DNA from: a virus
Taxonomy: Duplodnaviria > Heunggongvirae > Uroviricota > Caudoviricetes
Length of the DNA: 13,618 nucleotides
Virus record (IMG/VR): IMGVR_UViG_3300028532_000077
Reading direction: 5' to 3' (one strand)
Under the pieces are notes generated by a model that saw nothing but the letters and a program-made list of their open reading frames with translations, was not told the origin of the DNA and did not search any database. The stretch's first letter is position 1, and the number at the start of each line of letters is the position of its first letter. Below are positions 112 to 13,501 of the stretch, in pieces. The translations under genes and the position numbers were made by a program.

Positions 112-131
112 ATGGTGCCGATAATAGGAGT
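112..131. repeat. attL-type direct repeat (tRNA 3'-end copy)
   Basis: ATGGTGCCGATAATAGGAGT is identical to 13482-13501; it duplicates the 3'-terminal 19 nt of the tRNA-Thr gene at the other end of the window. Confidence 0.8.
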
Positions 132-273
132 AAAACACTCGATTAATCTCGTGTTAATGCCATCACCTACGACCATTACTAATTGATTGAATCTTATAGA
201 AAAATCATCATTTTCTATGCGTCACAATCAATTTTCACATTACAAACGCTCCGACACTTTAGCCGGAGATTTT

Positions 274-1551
274 ATGAGATACAAGCCTAACCAATACTTA
301 ATCTGTGATTCTTACGGTAACTACTATTTGAGGATCACGTTGCCTGTGTATATGCAGCCCTTTTTTGAAGGAAAAAGGACGTTTGTCAGAAGTCTGCACA
401 CAAGTAATCTTCGTGTTGCACGTAGAAAGCGTGATCAGATTGCAGATGAATACCATTGCTTACGGGAGAGTGTTGCCCCTGTAAACAGCACAATAGAAAA
501 CACGCTGGAACTGTTACGCAGTAAGGCTAAATACGCCAAAACAGCTACCAGAGTGCAAGATACAGCGTCTTCGTGTCCGTCATTGCTTAAAATTCTTGAA
601 ATCTACCTGACAATTAACAGCACGAAGAAGAAGCCAGCCACTTTAGCTAAGGCAAGAAAAGCGGTAGAGATGTTTCTCTCCTACCGTAAAAAGCCTGATA
701 TTGCATTGCAAGATGTAAGCCGCACCACTGTTACAGGCTGGATTGAACACATGCAAAAAACTCTTTCACAACAATCAATTGCAAATTATATCAGCCCAAT
801 GGCCCAGCTATGGGAATTAGCTTCATCACGTTACCACGATGCGCCAGAAAGGGCGCTCTCCCCCTGGCGAGGGCATAGGCTTGATGTGGCACAAAGTAGA
901 GAGAGCTACGAGGCATTTTCTAACAAAGAGCTATTGCAGGTGTTGCAAGTATTTTCCGGTAATTCAGCAGAAAACAAAGAAATGACGGCTTTGTGTCTTA
1001 TCGGTTTATATACAGGTATGCGGATCAATGAGATAGCAAGTCTCACAATAGACGATGTGAAAGAGATCGAAGGTGTGCTGTGTTTTGAAATCACACAGGG
1101 AAAAACGAAAGCTGCGGCACGTCTTGTGCCTGTGCATAGCCTTATCACTCCATTGGTGTTATCTCTTCGTGAAAAGCCTCACAATGGCTTTTTGTTCTAT
1201 CACGCCAGCATTACAGAGCGTGCTGACGGTAAACGCTCTACGTGGCATACACAACGATTTACAAGAGCTAAACGAAAGGCTTTAGGGGAAAAGGGAACAG
1301 AAAGGAAAGTGTTTCATTCTCTGAGACACGGAGTAGCACAGCTTCTTGATCGAAATCAAATTCCAGAGGACCGCATAGCTTTAATTTTGGGCCATCAGCG
1401 CGGCAATACAGAAACATTCCGCACATATAGCAAGAATGCAGCTTCTCCAGTAGAGCTTAAAAAATATATTGAGCTTTTACGCTACCCTGAAATAGAGAAA
1501 GGCTTATCAATCAATAAAAAATCAAATTTAAGGCGTAAAACAACGCCATAG
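274..1551 (+). CDS. int: Tyrosine recombinase / phage-type integrase
   Basis: C-terminal catalytic signature visible in translation: LYTGMRINE (Arg), HSLRH (His-x-x-Arg), LGHQRGNTETFRTY (His ... Tyr nucleophile). N-terminus YGNYYLRITLPVY...GKRTFVRSL resembles the arm-binding domain of phage integrases. Start chosen at ATG 274 with GGAG 5 nt upstream; ORF is open from TTG 187, ATG 217 also possible. Confidence 0.9.
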   Translation: MRYKPNQYLICDSYGNYYLRITLPVYMQPFFEGKRTFVRSLHTSNLRVARRKRDQIADEYHCLRESVAPVNSTIENTLELLRSKAKYAKTATRVQDTASSCPSLLKILEIYLTINSTKKKPATLAKARKAVEMFLSYRKKPDIALQDVSRTTVTGWIEHMQKTLSQQSIANYISPMAQLWELASSRYHDAPERALSPWRGHRLDVAQSRESYEAFSNKELLQVLQVFSGNSAENKEMTALCLIGLYTGMRINEIASLTIDDVKEIEGVLCFEITQGKTKAAARLVPVHSLITPLVLSLREKPHNGFLFYHASITERADGKRSTWHTQRFTRAKRKALGEKGTERKVFHSLRHGVAQLLDRNQIPEDRIALILGHQRGNTETFRTYSKNAASPVELKKYIELLRYPEIEKGLSINKKSNLRRKTTP

Positions 1552-1625: not shown

Positions 1626-2282
1626 TTATTTCACTTCTCCGTCATACGTCGGAAGGGTGTCTTTAGTGGTGCTGGCTGTTCCTGCATTGGTTGGCACTCG
1701 GCTTTTTACCTGTCCGCCTGTGCTCTTAGGTGATGCGGTCTTTATAGCAATAGCGTTAGTAGTTGCATAACTCACTAATCTTATCTGTTCGAACTGCAAA
1801 TCAAACTGTAAAGCTGATTCTGTTTTATATTCGTAGTCAATGCCTGTCAGAATCATATTATCAAACGTCTTATGCTCTGTGCTTACAATAATAGGCTGTC
1901 TGGCATTCATTATTTCATCAAGATAAGCAATAGCCTGTGAACACCTGTTACCGTTCACCCCTGCACTTGATAGCATATCACCACGTAATGCTAATGGTGT
2001 TTCTGTAATAATGCCTGAAAGCATAAGTTTATTATTCTTGATCCTGACATTATCAGATACATCATTACCATCCTGCACAGGATACGATGTAACATCGGCA
2101 GAACGTGAAACCTTAGTTGCCGGAACAGCGTCAAAAGTAATAGCTTTATAACTGGCTATCGTTGATGCATTTTCGTTATTCAGGTTGCTACATATAATGG
2201 CAAATCCGTTATCAGATTTAACCTTGCTGTTAGATGTATTAATGTTAGATGTGCTGTTGATCTGACTTTCTTTGATAGCCAT
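1626..2282 (-). CDS. Hypothetical protein (218 aa), last gene of the virion-like operon; possible minor structural protein
   Basis: Long ORF with AAGGA Shine-Dalgarno about 10 nt upstream of ATG; lies 73 nt downstream of the 633-aa gene on the same strand; Ser/Thr/Asn-rich sequence with no recognisable catalytic motif. Confidence 0.7.
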   Translation of the reverse strand: MAIKESQINSTSNINTSNSKVKSDNGFAIICSNLNNENASTIASYKAITFDAVPATKVSRSADVTSYPVQDGNDVSDNVRIKNNKLMLSGIITETPLALRGDMLSSAGVNGNRCSQAIAYLDEIMNARQPIIVSTEHKTFDNMILTGIDYEYKTESALQFDLQFEQIRLVSYATTNAIAIKTASPKSTGGQVKSRVPTNAGTASTTKDTLPTYDGEVK

Positions 2283-2355
2283 TTATATTAATCCTTGTGT
2301 AATGAGCGGAAAGCAATAAATATTGCCCCCGCTTTATTATTAGTTATCGTTAAAC

Positions 2356-4257
2356 TTAGTTAACGCTACTCTGTCCTGACAACGTGCTAAGAATCAGATT
2401 CGAACTAAACTGATTGTTGTTCGCTCTGATCTCAGTGCGGATTAAATCCTGAAAGCCGGGACCGTTAGGGATGACGTTAACAGAGATCATATCACTCGGC
2501 ACCGTAACCTGTGCATTCACGTTAACAGGAGTTGCGTATTGACGTTGTAGGCTTACAGTCGGCTGATAGGCTTCTGCTTTACGTGCAACAAGGGTTGATC
2601 CGTAGCTGTTAGCATTGCCATTAATTAAATCAGTCCACCACCCTGGAACGCCGGACTGTGTTTCCTCACCGCGCACAATACGCCCTACATCTTTCGTATC
2701 GAGTCCAGTTGCATAACGAATACCTTCATTGATAATCGTTGATGGCGACCATTCCCCATCTGTAACAGCGTCCATAACCTTTTGTGTCTCAGGTCTGTTA
2801 TCATTCTCACCACGGCTAAGATGTTTATTAATCCAGCTTGTGATTTGATTCCCGTAAGAAGTCATAGAGGTCAGTAATACAGCGCCTTGTTTAGCCAAAT
2901 CCCCGAACGATGCACCAACACCATAAGCTGCATTCTGTAAGGCTTTGCTTTCTTCCGGTTTGAGTGCTGGCATGTTGGCTATGCCATCAAAGAAGCCCAA
3001 AATAGCCTGATTCGATAGTCCATCTGTCAGACGGTCAAAGGCTGTAGCTGTCTTGTTAGCTGCGCGATATTGCTCTTTCTGTGCTTCTGTCAGTAGCTGC
3101 CCGTTGTTTTCCATATCAACCATCGTTTTACGGAACTCTTCCCCATCACGGGAAAACATCTTGAGATAATGGCTGGCATCGTCTGCTAATGGTTCGATCA
3201 GGGATATGATGGCTTCTTTAGTCATTCCTCGGCGTTCACCTTCTCTCACCACGTCTTGCAGGAGTTGCAGCGGTCGCCCCTGGTAGGAAGCTATCTTATC
3301 TTTGTTCCATGCAAAGGCATTCTGAATATCATTTAATGATCCTTCCCCGCCTCGCCACTCTTTTTTCTTACTATCCCATTCAGCAGTTCGGCTTTGATGA
3401 CCAATGCGTTCGTTTAAGTCTTTGATATTGTCAGTGGTCTTGTCCACGCTTGCACTTGATACACCGTTTGCCCTCCCCCAATTAACCATTGCAGCCACCT
3501 GGTTGGAGTCTGCGCCTACCAGATCGCTCATCTTCTGCAATTCCATACGTTCACGGGCTTTTTCCATTCCAGCAGATACAGCCATACTTCCTAAGCCAAC
3601 GGCAGCGCCGCCGATAATGCCACCAACACCGCCCATCATTAACGCGCCACCGCCGCTAACACCTTCTTTGTGGAGCTTCTTAGAAGTAACTGGATATACA
3701 CCCCCAGCGGCAGCATTACGACGCGTAGCAGCGGCTGCGGCTCGTCTTTCTAATGTGATGCGGTCACGGATCAGGGCATTCATCTTCGCTTGCGATATAG
3801 CGCCGGATTCATAGAGGCGGGTTTGTTCCTTAATGTAACGTAGAGCATCGTGATATTTCTTAATATCCATCCCTTCGCCATAGCGGGAATTGTTCTTGAT
3901 GCCTTGTAACTGGCGATATGATGCAAGGCGCTTGATCTCTGCCTTTTCAGCAATTGAGGCTTGTTTAGCCTGTGCTTTAGCGAGGTTTTTAGCTTCCTGT
4001 AGCTTCTGTTTAGTGCTGGCTTTAGATGCCTGTGTCTCAGATTTAACAGCCCGCTTAACATGCTGATCATGCTGGCGCTGAATCTCTTTTCCCAGCCTCT
4101 GTAAATCTTTCTGACGTGCTGCCGCCACTTGCACAGGTTTGATCCCCTGCATCTTCTTTTGTAGCTTATCCACTTCATTCTTAGCTTTCTGTAAGCTCTT
4201 GAAATCAGTGGTAAATGTCACAACATTACTAATTCGTGAGGCGGTAATTTCTAACAT
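2356..4257 (-). CDS. Coiled-coil / glycine-zipper protein (633 aa), tape-measure-like or ejection-protein-like
   Basis: N-terminal ~170 aa are K/Q/A/E-rich heptad-like (LQKAKNEVDKLQKK..., KQKLQEAKNLAKAQAKQ); central hydrophobic Gly-rich segment GGGALMMGGVGGIIGGAAVGLGSMAVSAGM as seen in phage tape-measure and pilot/ejection proteins; no enzymatic motif recognised. Confidence 0.75.
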   Translation of the reverse strand: MLEITASRISNVVTFTTDFKSLQKAKNEVDKLQKKMQGIKPVQVAAARQKDLQRLGKEIQRQHDQHVKRAVKSETQASKASTKQKLQEAKNLAKAQAKQASIAEKAEIKRLASYRQLQGIKNNSRYGEGMDIKKYHDALRYIKEQTRLYESGAISQAKMNALIRDRITLERRAAAAATRRNAAAGGVYPVTSKKLHKEGVSGGGALMMGGVGGIIGGAAVGLGSMAVSAGMEKARERMELQKMSDLVGADSNQVAAMVNWGRANGVSSASVDKTTDNIKDLNERIGHQSRTAEWDSKKKEWRGGEGSLNDIQNAFAWNKDKIASYQGRPLQLLQDVVREGERRGMTKEAIISLIEPLADDASHYLKMFSRDGEEFRKTMVDMENNGQLLTEAQKEQYRAANKTATAFDRLTDGLSNQAILGFFDGIANMPALKPEESKALQNAAYGVGASFGDLAKQGAVLLTSMTSYGNQITSWINKHLSRGENDNRPETQKVMDAVTDGEWSPSTIINEGIRYATGLDTKDVGRIVRGEETQSGVPGWWTDLINGNANSYGSTLVARKAEAYQPTVSLQRQYATPVNVNAQVTVPSDMISVNVIPNGPGFQDLIRTEIRANNNQFSSNLILSTLSGQSSVN

Positions 4258-4291
4258 GTTAATTGTTTCCCTGTATTATGATTATTGTTTG

Positions 4292-4489
4292 TTATTGTTT
4301 TTTAGAGCAATAATATTGGATTGCCTCAAAAGTGCTGCACCCAGTCTGAAACACACGCTGCCGCACATTATTTGCATCAATTGAAAGCATTCTGCATAAG
4401 GCACTGACATTGATTATTGAGTCATCGCTAATAGCTGCCAGTTCTTTTACAGCCTTAAGAATAAAGGATTGTGGGTTTTCTGTATTCAT
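4292..4489 (-). CDS. Small hypothetical protein (65 aa)
   Basis: ORF between the 343-aa and 633-aa genes on the same strand; weak purine-rich RBS (GAGAGAAAACC); no motif recognised. Confidence 0.45.
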   Translation of the reverse strand: MNTENPQSFILKAVKELAAISDDSIINVSALCRMLSIDANNVRQRVFQTGCSTFEAIQYYCSKKQ

Positions 4490-4640
4490 TGGTTTTCTCT
4501 CACATATATATTTTTATTTGGGTTTGTAGACAGTAGAAAAACAAAAAGGGCAAAGAGATTCGTTACTGTATTTGCGCCTACAGGTTAGTTAATCCCTTTA
4601 CCCTTATTGCCCCGATGGGGAATCGTCTATTAACGCTTTA

Positions 4641-5672
4641 TTACGCAGCAGATCCGAAGATGATAGCTTGCGGAATGTTGTTTACTGGCAGATAAGATGT
4701 CTCAGTAACCACAGATGGGAATTGGAATTCATCCTTGATTAGATATTGGTGATGCAACACGGCATCTTGACCTAACTCAGCATGACGCACACCAACGCCG
4801 CTATGAAGCTGGTAACACTGTGCCGCTTTATCCATTACCGGAACAATTGCGAAACCGTTCTCTCCGATGTGAGCAACAATCTCAGGAAACATTGACACAT
4901 CAATAACAGTGATCCCACCAATCTGGAAAGAGTCATAGGCTGGGTTAGAATCAACCATACGGGTAAACAGGGCCGTAGCACTCGCATCACCTGCATATTT
5001 CACCATGTCACTGATCAGCGGGTTAGATGACAAACCATCAGCAGCAGCGCCAGCAGCAAAGATAATTACACCAGTTCGCTTTGCAGCAAGACCAGACCCC
5101 AGCTTTTCACTCTGTAAGCGCACCGCTTTACGAATAGCAAGGAACGGGTTAACAGTAGTCGATGCAAAGTCGATAGCGGGTACCGTGGTTTTAGCCTGAC
5201 CGTCGAGGAAGTCGAGATCACCTTGTCCGGCATATTCAGATTCAACTTTCAGTCCCAGCAGCGCGGTAATCAGATCCACTTCAACACGGTTTGCGTGTGA
5301 ACGGTAATGAGCCTCAGAGAAATCATTAACCGCTACCAGCATAGCATCAGAACGGTTTGGATATTGGCGGCTGTATTGTTCCAGGTCACGAGAAGTAACA
5401 GCGTTAATACTGCCGACGTGTTTCATCTGGAAAAGTTTGTTTGACCATTCCTGACGTTTAGAAGCGTTCCAGTCGCTTTGAGCGTAAGGCGAGGTTTCCC
5501 CGGCTACCTGCACAAACTGCTCAATCAGGTCGGTAAGAAGAATGCTGTTTTCTGTATGATATTGCACATCGAACAGATCGAGATTAGTAATCAGGGTATT
5601 AAGTGCATTCTCATAAGCAAATGGAGTTACTACCGCAGTATTAACGCCAAAATATGTTGATAAATCATTCAT
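4641..5672 (-). CDS. Putative major capsid-like protein (343 aa)
   Basis: Size and position match the major capsid gene of lambda-like head modules (about 340 aa, immediately after an about 120-aa gene); AAGGAAAATAAT RBS; mixed alpha/beta composition with no nucleotide-binding or catalytic motif. Assignment is from context only. Confidence 0.6.
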   Translation of the reverse strand: MNDLSTYFGVNTAVVTPFAYENALNTLITNLDLFDVQYHTENSILLTDLIEQFVQVAGETSPYAQSDWNASKRQEWSNKLFQMKHVGSINAVTSRDLEQYSRQYPNRSDAMLVAVNDFSEAHYRSHANRVEVDLITALLGLKVESEYAGQGDLDFLDGQAKTTVPAIDFASTTVNPFLAIRKAVRLQSEKLGSGLAAKRTGVIIFAAGAAADGLSSNPLISDMVKYAGDASATALFTRMVDSNPAYDSFQIGGITVIDVSMFPEIVAHIGENGFAIVPVMDKAAQCYQLHSGVGVRHAELGQDAVLHHQYLIKDEFQFPSVVTETSYLPVNNIPQAIIFGSAA

Positions 5673-5686
5673 TATTATTTTCCTTG

Positions 5687-6070
5687 TTAAGTCGTAGGGA
5701 TCGCAAGTTCTTCATAACCAGCAATTACAAAGCCGAGAGATTGCAGTTTTGCAATAACACTTGCCTTTTCCATGCTGTTAAATTCAATCCCATCTTCAGC
5801 CAGAATAACGAAAGTAGGATGTGCAACCACTACGCTTTCCTGTCCTTCATAAGCCGGTTCAACTACTACGTGAGCAATATCAGATGCGGTTGTTGCTTTG
5901 GTGCCATCGGCTTTCAGCAAAGCCCCGACAATAAGATCGTCAGTGAGAGGTGAAGCCAGTTTGACGAGGCGATCTTGCAGCACTGGATCAGCAGCGTAAG
6001 CTACTACCTTACAGCGTGAACGGGAGTTATCCGCATTCACTGCTTTTAATTTTCCATATGGGTTAGCCAT
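5687..6070 (-). CDS. Putative head decoration / scaffold-like protein (127 aa)
   Basis: Stop lies 14 nt from the start of the 343-aa gene; nearly identical AAGGAAAATAAT RBS context; size and position resemble gpD-type decoration proteins upstream of major capsid genes. Context only. Confidence 0.5.
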   Translation of the reverse strand: MANPYGKLKAVNADNSRSRCKVVAYAADPVLQDRLVKLASPLTDDLIVGALLKADGTKATTASDIAHVVVEPAYEGQESVVVAHPTFVILAEDGIEFNSMEKASVIAKLQSLGFVIAGYEELAIPTT

Positions 6071-6074
6071 AAGA

Positions 6075-6272
6075 TTATTTTCCTTTCAGTTGTTTAATTT
6101 TAGATTTAAGGGCATCAGCAAGACTAACCGCATCAGCCGATTTAAATAATTGAGCAGTGGTAGAACGAAGACTTTCGGGAGTAACTCCCAACAGTGCGGC
6201 AACCTTAATGAGGTTTTCATCACTAACAATCATCGTTTCCCCGTCTTTGCTGATAATCATTTCTTGTTTCAT
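6075..6272 (-). CDS. Small hypothetical protein (65 aa from ATG 6272; ORF open to 6314)
   Basis: First gene of the leftward virion-like operon; AGGAA 8 nt upstream of ATG 6272; stop is 4 nt before the next start; the longer ORF start at 6314 would run into an upstream hairpin. Confidence 0.55.
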   Translation of the reverse strand: MKQEMIISKDGETMIVSDENLIKVAALLGVTPESLRSTTAQLFKSADAVSLADALKSKIKQLKGK

Positions 6273-7266
6273 AAATAACGTTCCTGTTAGTGCCAGACAA
6301 ATAAAAAGCCCCAATGCCGTAAGAGGTTAATTCTGACCAGCAAAGGGGCTTTAACGTGCGGGCAATTACATAATTGATAAGTTAAACTATAAGAGGATTA
6401 AACATATCAGCAAATACACTTTTTAAATATACTTGATGATATGCTTAAAGAGTGAATATCAGACCTTAGAAAGGAAGGCTCTTAGGAGTTTGCCACTGGA
6501 ATCACTAAGATCTGATATTCTGGGTGCGGTGGCTAACCGCTGCCTGTTTTTGCTGTGGATGCAACAAAGTAAGGCTTTAAGGAATCACTATTCCAATTCT
6601 CATCTACTCACAGATCAAATTTTAATAGGATTAACTACACCAACAATAATCTACCGTTTCAGAAAAAGCGTTTTTACAACCAAAGATTATAGATTTGCAG
6701 TCTATAAAACCCGTTTTGCTATCAATATTTCCAAAGGTTATTGCACAATTCTTAGCTAAACTCTCTACTTGCGGCTAACGCTACGCAGATGATAGTTTTT
6801 TGACAACAACTTAATAGATTATTCTGTTACTAACTTCTGTCATTAAATAAGAGTTTAATGATGTTAGTAAATAGTTATAAAATATAACTATCAGTGTAAG
6901 GCTCTTTAATGTTTTCGGACAAAATAAGGAGCTTTAGGATAAGCATAGATGAAAAATAAGAGCGGGAAGGGCAAGGAGATAACACCTACCCGCTTTTATC
7001 AAAATTAAGCACAATGCCTAACAACATTCATCAACACAACGTAGAAACAATCAACAATCAAAGAGGGAGTTATGATTATTCTAAAACTTCTTGAGAGATG
7101 GAAGGTAATATTTGTTAGAGGTTAATGCCACTCAACCCTTGAGGCTATCACCTTCCATATGCAGGGATTTATGACAGTAGAAGGATTAACACCAGTCAAA
7201 ACCTTTTTATCTACCCCTAATATCATTATATAATGAAATCGCTATAAATGCAAATGATTTTCATTG

Positions 7267-7575
7267 TCATTTAGAGAAAATAGCACTTTTTGCTAAATCA
7301 TCTACTAATTGCTGAATCTCTTCACTTGCAGCCTTTAACGTGCTGGCGGTGTCTGTGATGGTTTGAGTACACAGCCTGACATCGTCCTTAGATAGCTCTA
7401 AATCGCTCACCAGAGAGATGAAATCGTCAAGGCTTACATTCACCTTCATTAAGCTACTAACGCATTGAGAGAGCGTGTAATCGCATAAATCTGAATAGGC
7501 TTGATTGATACGTGTCTGTAGGGCGATCATCCGATCCGAAAGAGTGTCCATAACTTCCAGAATGTTGTCTGTCAT
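7267..7575 (-). CDS. Hypothetical small acidic helical protein (102 aa)
   Basis: ATG overlaps the stop of the upstream ORF (ATGA coupling at 7572-7575); AGGAG upstream; no motif recognised. Confidence 0.65.
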   Translation of the reverse strand: MTDNILEVMDTLSDRMIALQTRINQAYSDLCDYTLSQCVSSLMKVNVSLDDFISLVSDLELSKDDVRLCTQTITDTASTLKAASEEIQQLVDDLAKSAIFSK

Positions 7576-7844
7576 TGTGCAATCTCTCCTTGATCTGCTG
7601 ATTCCATCTCTTGCTGAATCTGTTTAGCCTTGTTTAGTGCAATCTGTAGCGGTATACGATAGGTTGCAATGTCATCCAGCACATCATCAAGCAAGGCAAA
7701 ATCATTTTCTTCTTTTGCTCGTTCAGCCAGTGAAATAAACACTTCTGCAAGTTGTTTTGCTTCTTTAAAAAATGTTGTTTCTAATAGTTGATAGTTAATC
7801 ATTATTTTTCCTTTTTCGATTATTTTCATTGGGCGCTTATACAT
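7572..7844 (-). CDS. Hypothetical small helical protein (90 aa; likely true start at 7802, 76 aa)
   Basis: In-frame ATG at 7802 has a good AAGGA RBS at 7-nt spacing, whereas the ATG at 7844 has GGGAG only 1 nt away; translationally coupled to the downstream 102-aa ORF. Confidence 0.65.
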   Translation of the reverse strand: MYKRPMKIIEKGKIMINYQLLETTFFKEAKQLAEVFISLAERAKEENDFALLDDVLDDIATYRIPLQIALNKAKQIQQEMESADQGEIAQ

Positions 7845-7859
7845 ACTCCCATCATTTTA

Positions 7860-8243
7860 TTAGTTAGAACGTTTGTTAGAAGCTAATGTATCTTCTAAAT
7901 GAGCCATCAGATCGACTTCCGATGCACCACCTACACAATTATTGAAAGCGTTAAATCCCAAAAAATGATGATAGGAGCTAAACCCTAAAAGTTGCCAACG
8001 CTTCAGAGTGCCATCAGAAATTATTGTTTGTTTTCTTGTTCTTGGGCGAAAGTAAACGCCTGGCATTGACTGGATTATTTCTAATTCTTTATTACTTAAT
8101 TCAGGGGATTCTATTTCAAGAATAAATATTATCTCTTCCCCTGGAATTTCATTATTGGTATGTGTCGGTGGACGTTGTCTTTTTGAATTGAAATTACTGT
8201 TTTTTTCAATACGTTTTAAGTTATTCTTTTTCTTTCTTCCCAT
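7860..8243 (-). CDS. Hypothetical protein with basic N-terminus (127 aa)
   Basis: GAGGG RBS 5 nt upstream of ATG; N-terminus MGRKKKNNLKRIEKNSNFNSKRQR is strongly basic (possible nucleic-acid binding); no catalytic motif recognised. Confidence 0.65.
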   Translation of the reverse strand: MGRKKKNNLKRIEKNSNFNSKRQRPPTHTNNEIPGEEIIFILEIESPELSNKELEIIQSMPGVYFRPRTRKQTIISDGTLKRWQLLGFSSYHHFLGFNAFNNCVGGASEVDLMAHLEDTLASNKRSN

Positions 8244-8378
8244 TTTCCCTCTTTTTATGTGGATTATAAAAACTTAATGCCATAGTTACGATGAATATCG
8301 CCATAAATGCACTTGCCATATGTATTGCCCGATCTGTTGTTACTGATTGTTTGTGATGTTATAAATCATTTATTCTCC

Positions 8379-9047
8379 TTAGAATGGTATTGAATCGTAT
8401 ATTTCACTTTTTTCTCTTAGAGATATTATCAGATCGTGAAAAGCCTGTTTCTCAAGATAGATATTCTTTGAATCTAATGCTCGTTTTACAAAATCTTCTG
8501 TTTCTTCGTGCGGTGGTTTCTTCTTATCAAGGGAAAGAAGCCAAGTAAAAATTTCGGGCCGCTCAGGGAACTCTGATTCCTGTGTTTCTTCTTCAATGAT
8601 GATTTCTGAAACATTCAATATTTCATTAGATTCGTCTTCTTTCTCAGAAGGATCAGGTAGTGATGACTCTCCAGGGGGAGTAATATGTGCATCTGTGAAT
8701 GGTAATGCTTTATAGAGTGATGTTTGCCCGTCCCGAGCCTCTACAGAAAGAACTCCCATATCAACAAACATATTTATAATATTGCGAACCTGGCGATCAC
8801 TAACCATTCCAATATTAGATAATGTTTTTTGAGTGGCGTAACATTCTTGCCCTTGTTCATTGAATCCAGCTATATAGCTATAGATTTCAACGGCTGGCAG
8901 TGTAGCGGTGTATTCATTACCTGACGGTGAGAACCACTTTTTAAACATCTTCAACCACTGCTCAACGACTACATATTTTTGTTTACCATCTTTCTGATTT
9001 AGACATTTGGCTTTCGCTTCGGCAATTGTTTTGATATTTTTGATCAT
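8379..9047 (-). CDS. Winged-HTH DNA-binding protein (222 aa), candidate replication initiator or regulator
   Basis: Strong AGGAGG RBS before ATG 9047; segment YATQKTLSNIGMVSDRQVRNIINMFVDMGVLSVEARDGQTSLY has the pattern of a winged helix-turn-helix; acidic C-terminal tail (EDESNEILNVSEIIIEEETQESE). Confidence 0.75.
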   Translation of the reverse strand: MIKNIKTIAEAKAKCLNQKDGKQKYVVVEQWLKMFKKWFSPSGNEYTATLPAVEIYSYIAGFNEQGQECYATQKTLSNIGMVSDRQVRNIINMFVDMGVLSVEARDGQTSLYKALPFTDAHITPPGESSLPDPSEKEDESNEILNVSEIIIEEETQESEFPERPEIFTWLLSLDKKKPPHEETEDFVKRALDSKNIYLEKQAFHDLIISLREKSEIYDSIPF

Positions 9048-9171
9048 TTAGTTCCTCCTTTGTAAGGACTGTAATTAGTAATTCATTAACAAGTTTTGGA
9101 ATTGATTTCCCTTCTGCCTTTGCACGATTTAACAACGCGTTATAAGTTGCAGAATCAAAATTAATATTCAT
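8983..9171 (-). CDS. Ribbon-helix-helix (CopG/Arc-like) DNA-binding protein (62 aa)
   Basis: MNINFDSATYNALLNRAKAEGKSIPKLVNELLITVL fits the beta-strand then two-helix RHH pattern; GGAGAAGGAG RBS; 3' end overlaps the start of the wHTH gene by 65 nt in another frame. Confidence 0.65.
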   Translation of the reverse strand: MNINFDSATYNALLNRAKAEGKSIPKLVNELLITVLTKEELNDQKYQNNCRSESQMSKSERW

Positions 9172-9194
9172 TTGGTTTTCTCCTTCTCCTGTTA

Positions 9195-9371
9195 TTATTC
9201 TTTCTCTGCTTTACGCAGTTCATCAATAATTTTTAGTGCATCGTCAAAACATTTTTCACGCTCTGGATAACCACAGCGTCGCGCTGTGTTCCTATTCATT
9301 CTTACCCTAAAGCGGTTGATCTCACCACGTTTCCAGGCTTCAACTACATCTTGAGAAGTGAAATACTTCAC
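9195..9371 (-). CDS. Small hypothetical protein (58 aa, GTG start), first gene of the regulatory operon; not in the supplied ORF track
   Basis: GTG at 9371..9369 preceded by a perfect AGGAGG at about 8 nt; in-frame to TAA at 9197..9195; basic protein (…RFRVRMNRNTARRCGYPERE…). Confidence 0.5.
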   Translation of the reverse strand: MKYFTSQDVVEAWKRGEINRFRVRMNRNTARRCGYPEREKCFDDALKIIDELRKAEKE

Positions 9372-9494: not shown

Positions 9495-9523
9495 ACTTTA
9501 CCATAACTAAAGGCTTTTGTCAA
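9495..9523 (-). promoter_or_regulatory. Candidate sigma70 promoter for the leftward regulatory operon
   Basis: On the minus strand: TTGACA (9523..9518), 17-bp spacer, TAAAGT (9500..9495); about 120 nt upstream of the GTG at 9371. Confidence 0.4.
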
Positions 9524-10235: not shown

Positions 10236-10295
10236 ATAATTATTCTTATAAAGATAAAAAAGAATTATATTATATAGTTTAATTGTAGTATTGTC

Positions 10296-10394
10296 GGAAA
10301 TCATTTCCTAGGTGATAGGAACTCATTTCCTAGGTAGGTAGGAAACCACTTCCACGGTTATTTCCTAAATAGATCGGAACTCATTTCCCAGGTG
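10296..10394. repeat. Iteron-like array: four 19-bp direct repeats, each with internal dyad symmetry
   Basis: GGAAATCATTTCCTAGGTG (10296), GGAACTCATTTCCTAGGTA (10318), GGAAACCACTTCCACGGTT (10341), GGAACTCATTTCCCAGGTG (10376); spacing 22, 23 and 35 bp; each copy contains GGAA-N5-TTCC. Confidence 0.7.
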
Positions 10395-10860
10395 TTATTT
10401 ATACTTATCGGGTATCAGACTTGATAGGGGTAGCTCACAGTGACCTACCGTTACATCCAATCATCACATAACATCTGTGCAATGATCTTCTAAAAGTGTT
10501 TCTTGCTACCAAAATTAAACATCTAAAACAGGCTTAAATTCAATGTAATTGATGATTAATCCCTGTGTAATTCCTACGTAAAAATCCAATGAAAAGTAGC
10601 TTAAAAAGTGCAATGTTAGCTTTCTTCACTTTTGCGTCATCATCAGCAAAGCCTTATGTTATGCGGCATATAGCGCATCACTGCAAAATTGTTGCTCAAT
10701 AAACGTTCTATCATTTGTCGAACAAGTTCTTTCACGTGTTGAAAATTTATGTTTAAATTTGCTTTCAATCTTTAATGTGCAATCACTATCAACATAAAAA
10801 TAAAAAACCTTCTATTATATTTCATAGCATACAAAAGTCAATAGAAGCCCTCTCGTGCTC

Positions 10861-13481: not shown

Positions 13482-13501
13482 ATGGTGCCGATAATAGGAG
13501 T
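13482..13501. repeat. attR-type direct repeat overlapping the tRNA-Thr 3' end
   Basis: Identical to 112-131. Confidence 0.8.

Follow-up and report, generated by a model that had tools for sequence, protein, structure and literature searches.

A block of three small genes, here called A, B and C, lies near the middle of IMG/VR virus record IMGVR_UViG_3300028532_000077, a stretch of 13,618 nucleotides (nt) that we refer to in its entirety as the window. The block belongs to a 13.4-kb island at thrW, and our analysis reveals that it is a conserved core module of that island family and not optional cargo. With a probability of about 0.4, we favor the explanation that the trio encodes early, non-enzymatic binding proteins that would act on a helper phage or on the host, in takeover or interference. 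The island itself looks like a satellite of lytic myoviruses of the Stephanstirmvirinae (phAPEC8/phi92 type), apparently one that is undescribed.

An earlier reading made from the sequence alone (hereafter the sequence-only reading) had placed three small open reading frames (ORFs) of 127, 76 to 90 and 102 amino acids (aa) between positions 7267 and 8243 and described them as a translationally coupled trio at the distal end of a regulatory operon. The ORFs are indeed there, all on the minus strand (Table 1), and the sizes of A and C stand, but for B only the shorter figure does. The true start of B is almost certainly the ATG at 7802, and the program-listed form of 90 aa is unlikely, because this ATG, the third, is the sole one with a well-spaced AAGGA site, because the commonest database form of B also has 76 aa (P0191, 945 contigs), and because relatives in which the A allele is one codon longer have an A-B gap of just 17 nt, where the 14-codon extension of B does not exist. 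(Handles beginning with L and P denote compared loci and database protein forms, respectively.) The claim of coupling likewise holds in part. B and C share an ATGA, but A and B are separated in the window by 57 nt without overlap and B has its own ribosome-binding site, so that coupling by overlap in the window applies to B and C only. Relatives use TAATG, a 1-nt overlap, at the B-C junction instead of ATGA. Across the family, a B-C overlap, of 1 or 4 nt, is present in five lineages and an A-B overlap in two, the distant relatives L026 and L023.

All three are genuine genes, beyond chance ORFs, since order, reading frame, substitution pattern and occurrence all point the same way. Specifically, the order and reading frames of the three are kept in 17 related Escherichia coli and IMG/VR loci, and the order is also kept in at least six distant lineages. 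The ratio of nonsynonymous to synonymous substitution rates (dN/dS) stands at 0.16 in A, 0.07 in B and 0.53 in C, alongside values of about 0.14 for the integrase and capsid genes and 0.07 to 0.2 for neighboring genes. Furthermore, when 5426 complete E. coli genomes were examined, 293 contained DNA of the trio region.

All loci with sufficient flanking DNA show one and the same neighborhood of the trio: a replication gene, one or two small genes resembling gene D (described below), a short hydrophobic ORF, A, and one or two small acidic helical proteins. In relatives this order continues with a spacer, the capsid module, the tape measure, a Dit-like (distal tail) protein and the integrase, and the variable cargo lies on the opposite side, between the early promoter and tRNA-Thr. 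The position of the trio is kept in E. coli lineages of only 22 to 50% identity, in Klebsiella, in Winslowiella and in metagenome relatives. Around this block, other modules are exchanged. The trio is accompanied by either of two unrelated replication proteins, a 222-aa initiator with an HTH_36 (helix-turn-helix) domain or a helicase-like protein of 485 to 492 aa, and its alleles are uncoupled from the type of Rep DNA-binding domain. Trio alleles that are almost identical to one another are likewise found beside two capsid/decoration modules, neither of which detects the other by tblastn, and beside three tape-measure/Dit alleles. The family holds at least three such tape-measure/Dit alleles, at 26 to 100% identity, together with an integrase that remains at about 99% (window 1626-6314; L006-L009, L020, L026, L027). 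Because trio alleles are uncoupled from the capsid, tail and replication modules, their partners are unlikely to be the Rep, capsid or tail proteins of the island itself. The alleles are mosaic, with cassette breakpoints at gene borders, two old types of B kept in different lineages and a raised dN/dS in C, and this evolutionary pattern fits an interface under conflict. The sequence-only reading had seen in the trio a candidate accessory function, a term that does not suit what is among the most constant features of the family across genera and module swaps.

Homology searches gave little purchase on the three proteins. There was no usable match to Pfam, NCBIfam or PADLOC, the few weak NCBIfam matches falling below the cutoff, and in PHROGs there was a single weak match, of C to the unannotated phrog_4122 (1e-4). 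tblastn with the three proteins as queries returned no real match in 50,697 phage genomes, and a large protein database queried with the trio returned Escherichia proteins only, all without domains; no domain backs the name "transporter" that the source attaches to C. The structure prediction and fold search that had been proposed as a check were informative in part: a helical model was obtained for a natural fusion of a B-type protein to C, the model of A was unusable, and fold searches of the PDB and BFVD gave generic helical matches only (E > 0.2). Profile searches of PDB sequences retrieved designed or repeat proteins and nothing else. Two apparent relationships within the block were rejected. 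In two MAFFT alignments B came to lie on C, but paralogy has a probability of 3.6% by hhalign, and a 173-aa Klebsiella gene considered as a B-C fusion is not matched by the B and C profiles. The sequence-only reading would have been undercut by homology of all three proteins to characterized housekeeping phage proteins, and the family libraries, tblastn, and the profile and fold searches revealed none. Judged by these searches, all three trio proteins are orphan families. The statement that they carry no recognizable motif is accurate for curated libraries, but not beyond them, since A belongs to a wider family with clear motifs.

By sequence comparison, A is a composite: its N-terminal part is specific to the island, and its C-terminal module recurs in a small, conserved helper-type phage protein. 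The protein consists of a basic arm (residues 1-38), an acidic segment SPELSxxELEIIQSM, the segment GVYFRPRTRK, and a C-terminal module at about residues 80-106 (WQLLGF..HHFLGFNAFNN). Its isoelectric point (pI) is 9.6, and the first 30 residues hold 10 lysines or arginines (K/R), mostly lysine, and one aspartate or glutamate, which bears out the strongly basic N terminus reported earlier for one of the ORFs. The AlphaFold2 model of A is poor, with a predicted local distance difference test score (pLDDT) of 58.6; it shows residues 1-38 as disordered and places helices in the last third of the chain. When the profile of A was searched exhaustively, it gathered 35 clusters, two of them repeat-sequence artifacts. 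With these excluded, the family, from Escherichia, Klebsiella aerogenes, Winslowiella iniecta and metagenomes, is united by a basic N-terminal arm, which in every lineage has 7 to 11 K/R in the first 35 residues, by SPxL[ST]xEE and GVY[FY]KPRxRK, and by WQxLGF..HYxGW..FN. The A protein of the window carries all three motifs in order behind its arm, as SPELSNKE, GVYFRPRTRK and WQLLGFSSYHHFLGFNAFNN. As delimited by these profiles, this is an unnamed and uncharacterized family of small proteins that is wider than the window.

The connection to phages comes from the last of these segments. A member of the A family matches an 85-aa protein of Vequintavirinae phages that is encoded directly upstream of nrdA, and 8 of 24 family members match PHROG 5488 (phrog_5488, function unknown). 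The 85-aa protein is present in 238 phage genomes of about 115 to 150 kb, those seen being mostly Vequintavirinae-type myoviruses, and it lies directly upstream of nrdA in all three genomes inspected, including phAPEC8, where it is gp158. The composite nature of A follows from two comparisons: residues 80-106 align with this conserved small phage protein at an hhalign probability of 96.6% (E 5e-10), and gp158, the neighbor of NrdA, is the best match of the A profile among 2356 phAPEC8 ORFs (E 0.008). The module held in common with the phage protein (phAPEC8 gp158; ChuuTotoro CHUUTOTORO_01000; PHROG 5488) spans about 28 to 45 residues and reads (W)xxxGF..H[YF]xG[WF]L..N.L..[DE]VD.L. Unlike A, the phage protein of 80 to 85 aa has neither the basic arm nor the SPxLTxEE and GVYFKPRxRK segments.

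B and C are both acidic, with pI values of 4.3 and 4.1, and the description of two of the proteins as acidic and helical agrees with the AlphaFold2 model of the natural fusion mentioned above (P0092, in which B of a second type, B', is joined to C), which is all-helical at a pLDDT of 73. In this model the B' part forms three short helices (pLDDT of about 90) and the C part a long hairpin (pLDDT of 60 to 80); a long continuous helix across the junction is probably a fusion artifact and is uninformative on how B and C pack. B is accordingly modeled as three helices and C is predicted to be a long alpha-helical hairpin. B occurs as two deeply diverged types, that of the window and the 67-aa B' type, at 32% identity. 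They replace each other as a cassette, whose breakpoints fall at about 7542 and 7791, and both are found in deeply separated lineages; the B profile recovers the homolog in L026 (E 3.8e-8). Identity among alleles ranges from 22 to 100% for C and from 47 to 100% for A. C is also polymorphic in length at the hairpin tip, where the number of ELS repeats in the loop varies (7380-7400; LELS, LELSELS or LELSELSELS; P0126, P0141, P0153) and small deletions occur as well. We considered and rejected C as a WXG100 (ESAT-6-like) protein: the hairpin and the length fit, but TIGR03930 scores 14.3 bits with a cutoff of 44.85 and the turn reads LELSKDD, without W-x-G.

These observations suggest how the trio might work. 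Together with a putative membrane-peptide ORF, and with gene D in relatives, it would form the promoter-distal block of an early replication operon. Its products would be made early after induction, and their targets would be machinery of the helper phage or of the host rather than the Rep or capsid of the island. We place the partners outside the island, in helper or host, because the alleles are uncoupled from the island modules and because A carries a module of helper type. A could be an adaptor or mimic, with a disordered basic arm and a gp158-type module through which it would occupy the partner of that phage protein. B and C, which would be co-translated and are acidic and all-helical, would probably act as a pair. 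In the operons of Staphylococcus aureus pathogenicity islands (SaPIs) and of PLEs (elements that resemble phage-inducible chromosomal islands), genes downstream of the replication genes include helper-interference and redirection factors. By analogy, helper interference or derepression, which the sequence-only reading had raised for genes at this place in satellites, is a reasonable proposal for the trio.

Several observations weigh against this explanation. None of the family, profile and fold searches gave a functional homolog for A, B or C, so the mechanism rests on position and evolutionary pattern. The match to phAPEC8 gp158, itself a protein of an uncharacterized type, is weak for a search of that many ORFs. 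L018 and L020 pair near-identical C proteins with different types of B, and no clear co-variation of B and C was seen, which leaves the conserved overlap as the one argument for a tight B-C complex. In addition, the raised dN/dS of C could reflect a coiled coil under relaxed constraint. A and B are often deleted or fused in nature (P0046, P0047, P0210, P0211, L005, L011), and deletion derivatives in the databases, including A-B, B-C, peptide-B and Rep-B fusions, are frequent; A and B would therefore seem dispensable in the resting state, with some copies decaying.

The main rival explanation is that the trio, chiefly A, turns on the morphogenetic operon of the island, with A as a processive antiterminator of the lambda N type or an activator that works at the terminator before the capsid module, and with B and C as possible cofactors. 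The layout lends itself to such a switch. The trio always lies directly upstream of the spacer and the capsid module, a terminator-like hairpin stands about 25 nt before the start of that module with a further such site past the capsid gene, the terminators of relatives leave little room for a promoter after them, and the arm of A is rich in K/R in all lineages and predicted to be disordered. Nevertheless, we regard a late-gene switch as unlikely. The trio resembles neither N nor Q nor any other known regulator, and no nut/boxB-like element turned up, although no search aimed at a conserved boxB-like hairpin was made. Promoter-less terminators also occur between the late genes of phAPEC8 itself, and such sites may be leaky attenuators. 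Moreover, a box resembling TATAAATA between terminator and start codon in L026, L024 and L027 makes an independent late promoter of helper type possible, and in the window neither the T4 motif TATAAATA nor the rV5 late motif TGGTAAAATA is enriched. Alternatively, the trio may assist morphogenesis or packaging, as a scaffold or size determinant for the island capsid or as adaptors that redirect the helper terminase or portal to island DNA, for which CpmA/B and Ppi of SaPIs and Rpp of phage-inducible chromosomal islands (PICIs) are models. The island has no terminase or portal gene and must use those of the helper, the trio adjoins the capsid module in all relatives (in L026 the gap is just 520 bp and holds a gene on the opposite strand), and B and C resemble many scaffolding proteins in being small, acidic and all-helical. 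Yet near-identical trio alleles serve two capsid/decoration modules, which argues against a direct fit to the island capsid protein, and co-variation of B or C with capsid type, as for a scaffold or size determinant (CpmB/Sid/TcaP-like), was not seen. By its arrangement the trio is part of the early operon, with a terminator between it and the capsid genes, and it has no similarity to a terminase small subunit or scaffold. We judge this explanation quite unlikely as a whole, while an interaction of the trio with the helper terminase or portal is possible.

There is only a slim chance that the trio consists of replication accessories that help replication proteins to be loaded or recruited at the origin of the island. 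It directly follows rep in the same operon, and Rep seems to recruit partners through a C terminus (...DSIPF) that resembles the tail of single-stranded DNA-binding protein (SSB); but the trio stays the same next to either of two unrelated replication proteins, its alleles show no coupling to Rep type, and the iteron array is located across the operon, away from the trio. It can scarcely be credited that B and C are a toxin-antitoxin or abortive-infection pair, or that the trio is anti-defense cargo, as the sequence-only reading had considered for the case of a defense island. Two small co-transcribed genes with a stop/start overlap of 1 to 4 nt, the upstream product acidic, do fit a type II toxin-antitoxin layout, and they sit on a mobile element. 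However, Pfam, NCBIfam and PADLOC, together with the fold searches, gave neither a toxin fold or family nor an antitoxin DNA-binding domain in B and C; the downstream protein C is itself acidic and a plain helical hairpin; C survives intact in L005 and P0211, in which B is disrupted or fused; and the trio is core to the family, not variable cargo, with no PADLOC match in favor of a role in defense or anti-defense. A more elaborate proposal, which we hold to be very unlikely, combines features of several of these. The membrane peptide, A, B and C (tmP-A-B-C) would form a helper-coupled switch in which A plugs into a helper complex through its gp158-type module, copied from the helper protein, the arm binds nucleic acid and B-C joins, so that read-through of the conserved terminator into the capsid and tail genes is licensed while the helper is deprived of that same factor. 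If true, satellites would have a regulator of a new class, built by mimicking a protein of the helper, in what would apparently be the first satellite family for lytic coliphages of the Stephanstirmvirinae and Vequintavirinae types.

The preferred explanation, that the trio acts on helper or host, presupposes a satellite, and the satellite-like setting that the sequence-only reading had sensed is well supported by the features of the island. We read the island as a satellite because it has direct attachment (att) repeats, an integrase, a Rep with iterons, a partial set of structural genes, matches to phAPEC8, DNA shared with phages, and an Odn-like protein in a phage. The 20-bp repeats flank the island, and the one at 13482-13501 forms the 3' end of tRNA-Thr(CGT), with the pao genes on one side and proA on the other. 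Island proteins were compared with the complete phAPEC8 genome (Table 1). For the capsid protein, a search of the species representatives in GTDB found no relative, and the capsid protein of a distant relative matches Pfam Phage_cap_E. Family scans of the window ORFs found no terminase and no portal, and no master repressor, alpA, primase-replicase, terS or packaging-redirection gene was found among the ORFs scanned; in some relatives, the annotation includes regulators of the LexA family or of HTH type. An Rfam scan found the tRNA only. The four iteron units, each an internal inverted repeat, sit in a 1.4-kb stretch without convincing genes and are likely origin iterons or binding sites for Rep or a regulator.

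Two short segments of the island are 93 to 98% identical in DNA to Phapecoctavirus and Justusliebigvirus phages. One of these similarities concerns the r62 region (window 9019-9185), which is 98% identical to a 61-aa gene of Justusliebigvirus (PaulScherrer bas60_0101, L029 2468-2653) and indicates recent gene exchange between island and phage. Furthermore, a 328-aa protein of Phapecoctavirus Mt1B1_P17 (QNJ49226.1; MT496970.1 20722-21708, L028 2134-3120) contains two tandem DNA-binding domains of the island Rep: copy 1 is of the window type (window 8635-8952; 83% amino acid identity, E 1e-58) and copy 2 is the second Rep type of relatives. Its C terminus has a weak MUG113/T5orf172 (GIY-YIG-like) match below the Pfam cutoffs. 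The origin-directed nuclease Odn of phage ICP1, which is built likewise, is used against PLE (PMC8263062). This analogy suggests that QNJ49226.1 is a phage countermeasure against the present island family. The whole island, with its apparent Odn-like counterpart in a phage, is a more striking result than the trio.

The cargo varies from island to island. In relatives it includes a protein with a CapR domain (PF21817), an Imm_superinfect membrane protein and a second partial integrase (L020 2282-4623; L018 2459-4072); the CapR domain takes its name from the PLE repressor of ICP1 capsid genes.

Upstream of the trio, the leftward operon runs r58, a ribbon-helix-helix (RHH) gene, rep, A, B and C, tightly spaced on one strand. 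The sigma-70-like site, a consensus match, is likely the start of this early operon, and no terminator is predicted between it and C, so the trio is promoter-distal, as the sequence-only reading had it. Two small features had been overlooked there. The 32-codon ORF, with one hydrophobic segment and a basic tail, overlaps the start of A in another frame; ORFs of like character, without sequence similarity, occur at the same spot in seven of eight divergent lineages, including Klebsiella, and it is likely to be a genuine small membrane protein, coupled to A. The other is a remnant of gene D, which in most relatives lies between rep and A, encodes 85 to 89 aa and is winged-helix-like as judged by eye, its counterpart in L026 giving a weak HTH_65 match. 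D was lost from the window by an in-frame deletion between two "NIT/ITNNQ" repeats. Proteins of the Rep family end in ...YDSIPF, ...YDSLPF, ...RFELPF or ...DSEFIPF (window 8379-8400; L001, L024, L035). We take these ends to be like the acidic-IPF tail that brings many replication proteins to the SSB of E. coli, and Rep may mimic that tail. At the other end of the operon, an extra gene of 69 to 77 aa (phrog_27862, function unknown) overlaps the end of C in some relatives (L018 10952-11164, L024 10963-11196, L021 3334-3543); the window is without it.

Downstream of C lies the AT-rich spacer. It contains no iterons, and a role for it as the origin was rejected, the array being found instead beyond the early promoter. 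Canonical terminators stand at the place equivalent to the terminator-like hairpin in five distant relatives (L018, L020, L024, L026, L027). The "PHIRE promoters" of phAPEC8 (L032-L034, e.g., 556-575 and 143712-143731) are a conserved hairpin, GTAGGGCGGCAATGGTGCCGC, that is absent from the island. At least some copies of GTAGGGCGGCAATGGTGCCGC lie just downstream of annotated sigma-70-like promoters, and the hairpin looks like a 5'-leader element rather than a promoter.

Table 1. Positions of the trio and of other features in the 13,618-nt window.
Feature	Position	Strand	Description
att repeat	112-131		20-bp direct repeat
Tyrosine integrase	187-1551		
Dit-like tail protein	1626-2282	minus	matches phAPEC8 gp103, 5.6e-77
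Tape-measure protein	2356-4257	minus	matches phAPEC8 gp104, 3e-62; a 65-aa protein lies between tape measure and capsid
Second terminator-like site	4500-4560	minus	after capsid gene, as in phAPEC8
Capsid protein	4641-5672	minus	best phAPEC8 match is major head protein gp114, 1e-3
127-aa protein beyond capsid gene		minus	best phAPEC8 match is head decoration protein gp115, 0.06; followed by a 65-79-aa protein
Spacer between C and capsid module	6296-7266	minus	AT-rich, 35% GC, ~950 nt
Terminator-like hairpin	6305-6352	minus	-24 kcal/mol, z -3.5, U-run; ~25 nt before capsid-module start at 6272
Gene C	7267-7575	minus	102 aa, acidic, pI 4.1
B-C ATGA overlap	7572-7575	minus	B stop TGA 7574-7572 and C start ATG 7575-7573
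Gene B	7572-7802	minus	76 aa, acidic, pI 4.3; program-listed form 7844-7572, 90 aa
Gene A	7860-8243	minus	127 aa, basic disordered N terminus, GAGGG ribosome-binding site
32-codon ORF	8221-8319	minus	MASAFMAIFIVTMALSFYNPHKKRENGKKEKE; one hydrophobic segment and basic tail; 23-nt overlap with A start, other frame
Gene D remnant	8340-8369	minus	nine codons, MIYNITNNQ
Rep	8379-9047	minus	HTH_36 DNA-binding N-terminal domain; C terminus ...YDSIPF
r62, RHH-like	8983-9171	minus	upstream gene of the same operon
r58	9195-9371	minus	58-aa protein, upstream gene of the same operon
Sigma-70-like promoter	9495-9523	minus	TTGACA, 17-nt spacer, TAAAGT with upstream TG; consensus match only
Iteron array	10294-10397		four 22-nt units T.GGAA.TCATTTCC.AGGT, each an internal inverted repeat
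att repeat	13482-13501		20-bp direct repeat

The island family is found in about 5% of complete E. coli genomes, with relatives in Klebsiella and Winslowiella, and its candidate helpers, phages of the phAPEC8 and phi92 types, serve in therapy and biocontrol. Detailed knowledge of satellites of strictly lytic phages comes essentially from one system, PLE and ICP1, and this family would give E. coli an equivalent. Since the trio stays constant while replication, capsid and tail modules are swapped, it is the likeliest seat of functions common to all members, for which helper sensing and exploitation or late-gene switching are candidates. Its function would reveal how such islands take over a 150-kb lytic phage and whether carriage of an island protects strains from these phages. 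The shared module of A offers a testable handle, namely, the partner of the gp158-type phage proteins.

Comparison with known systems places the trio and its island among, but apart from, the described satellites. A recalls lambda N in size (about 100 to 135 aa), in an R/K-rich N-terminal arm (mostly lysine in the window) that is predicted to be disordered, and in its place upstream of terminators that precede later genes; it differs in having no sequence similarity to N, in not being first in its operon, and in possessing a folded-looking C-terminal module common to the nrdA-adjacent phage protein. Satellite P4 (sid-delta-psu; epsilon) likewise makes proteins that act on a helper, in capsid size, transactivation and derepression, but there was no PHROG or Pfam match to Sid, Delta, Psu, Epsilon or the Alpha primase, and helper type and architecture differ too, so a P4-like island was rejected. 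SaPI operon 1 (cpmA/cpmB, ptiA/ptiB/ptiM, ppi) and rpp of E. coli PICIs encode small helper-binding proteins after the replication genes in the same induced operon. These accessory genes follow the same positional logic as the trio, with no homology found. Those elements, however, have temperate helpers, derepression of a master repressor, and terS or cos/pac redirection, whereas no repressor, terS or primase was found in the window. We therefore rejected the PICI/SaPI type, its hallmark repressor/alpA, primase-replicase and terS/redirection genes being undetected among the scanned ORFs, and also the capsid-forming PICI type, because the head set comprises capsid and decoration only, with no portal or terminase found, and tape-measure and Dit-like tail genes are present.

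The closest parallel is PLE of Vibrio cholerae, the satellite of the lytic myovirus ICP1, whose layout fits the island in being integrase-bounded, with its own initiator and origin and an incomplete set of virion genes. Both are integrative islands of about 13 to 18 kb, with a RepA_N-style initiator that has a swappable DNA-binding domain, and with iterons. Both have a strictly lytic myovirus as helper, for our island a candidate one to which structural homology to phAPEC8, shared DNA segments and the Odn-like phage protein point indirectly, and in both a phage-encoded chimera reuses the satellite Rep DNA-binding domain beside a T5orf172-type domain (PMC8263062). Many small orphan genes follow the replication gene in each, and the relative L020 carries a CapR-domain protein. 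No similarity of the trio to PLE proteins was seen in indirect checks (Pfam, PHROGs, tblastn against phages). The island differs from PLE in its tyrosine integrase, sited at a tRNA gene, and in encoding capsid, decoration, tape-measure and Dit-like proteins of its own, none of which PLE is known to have. Small satellite proteins aimed at a helper are thus a kind familiar from SaPIs, P4 and PLE. The literature that we could search, that is, outside subscription journals, holds no description of the island or of the trio proteins, and within it both this setting and the composite A protein appear to be new.

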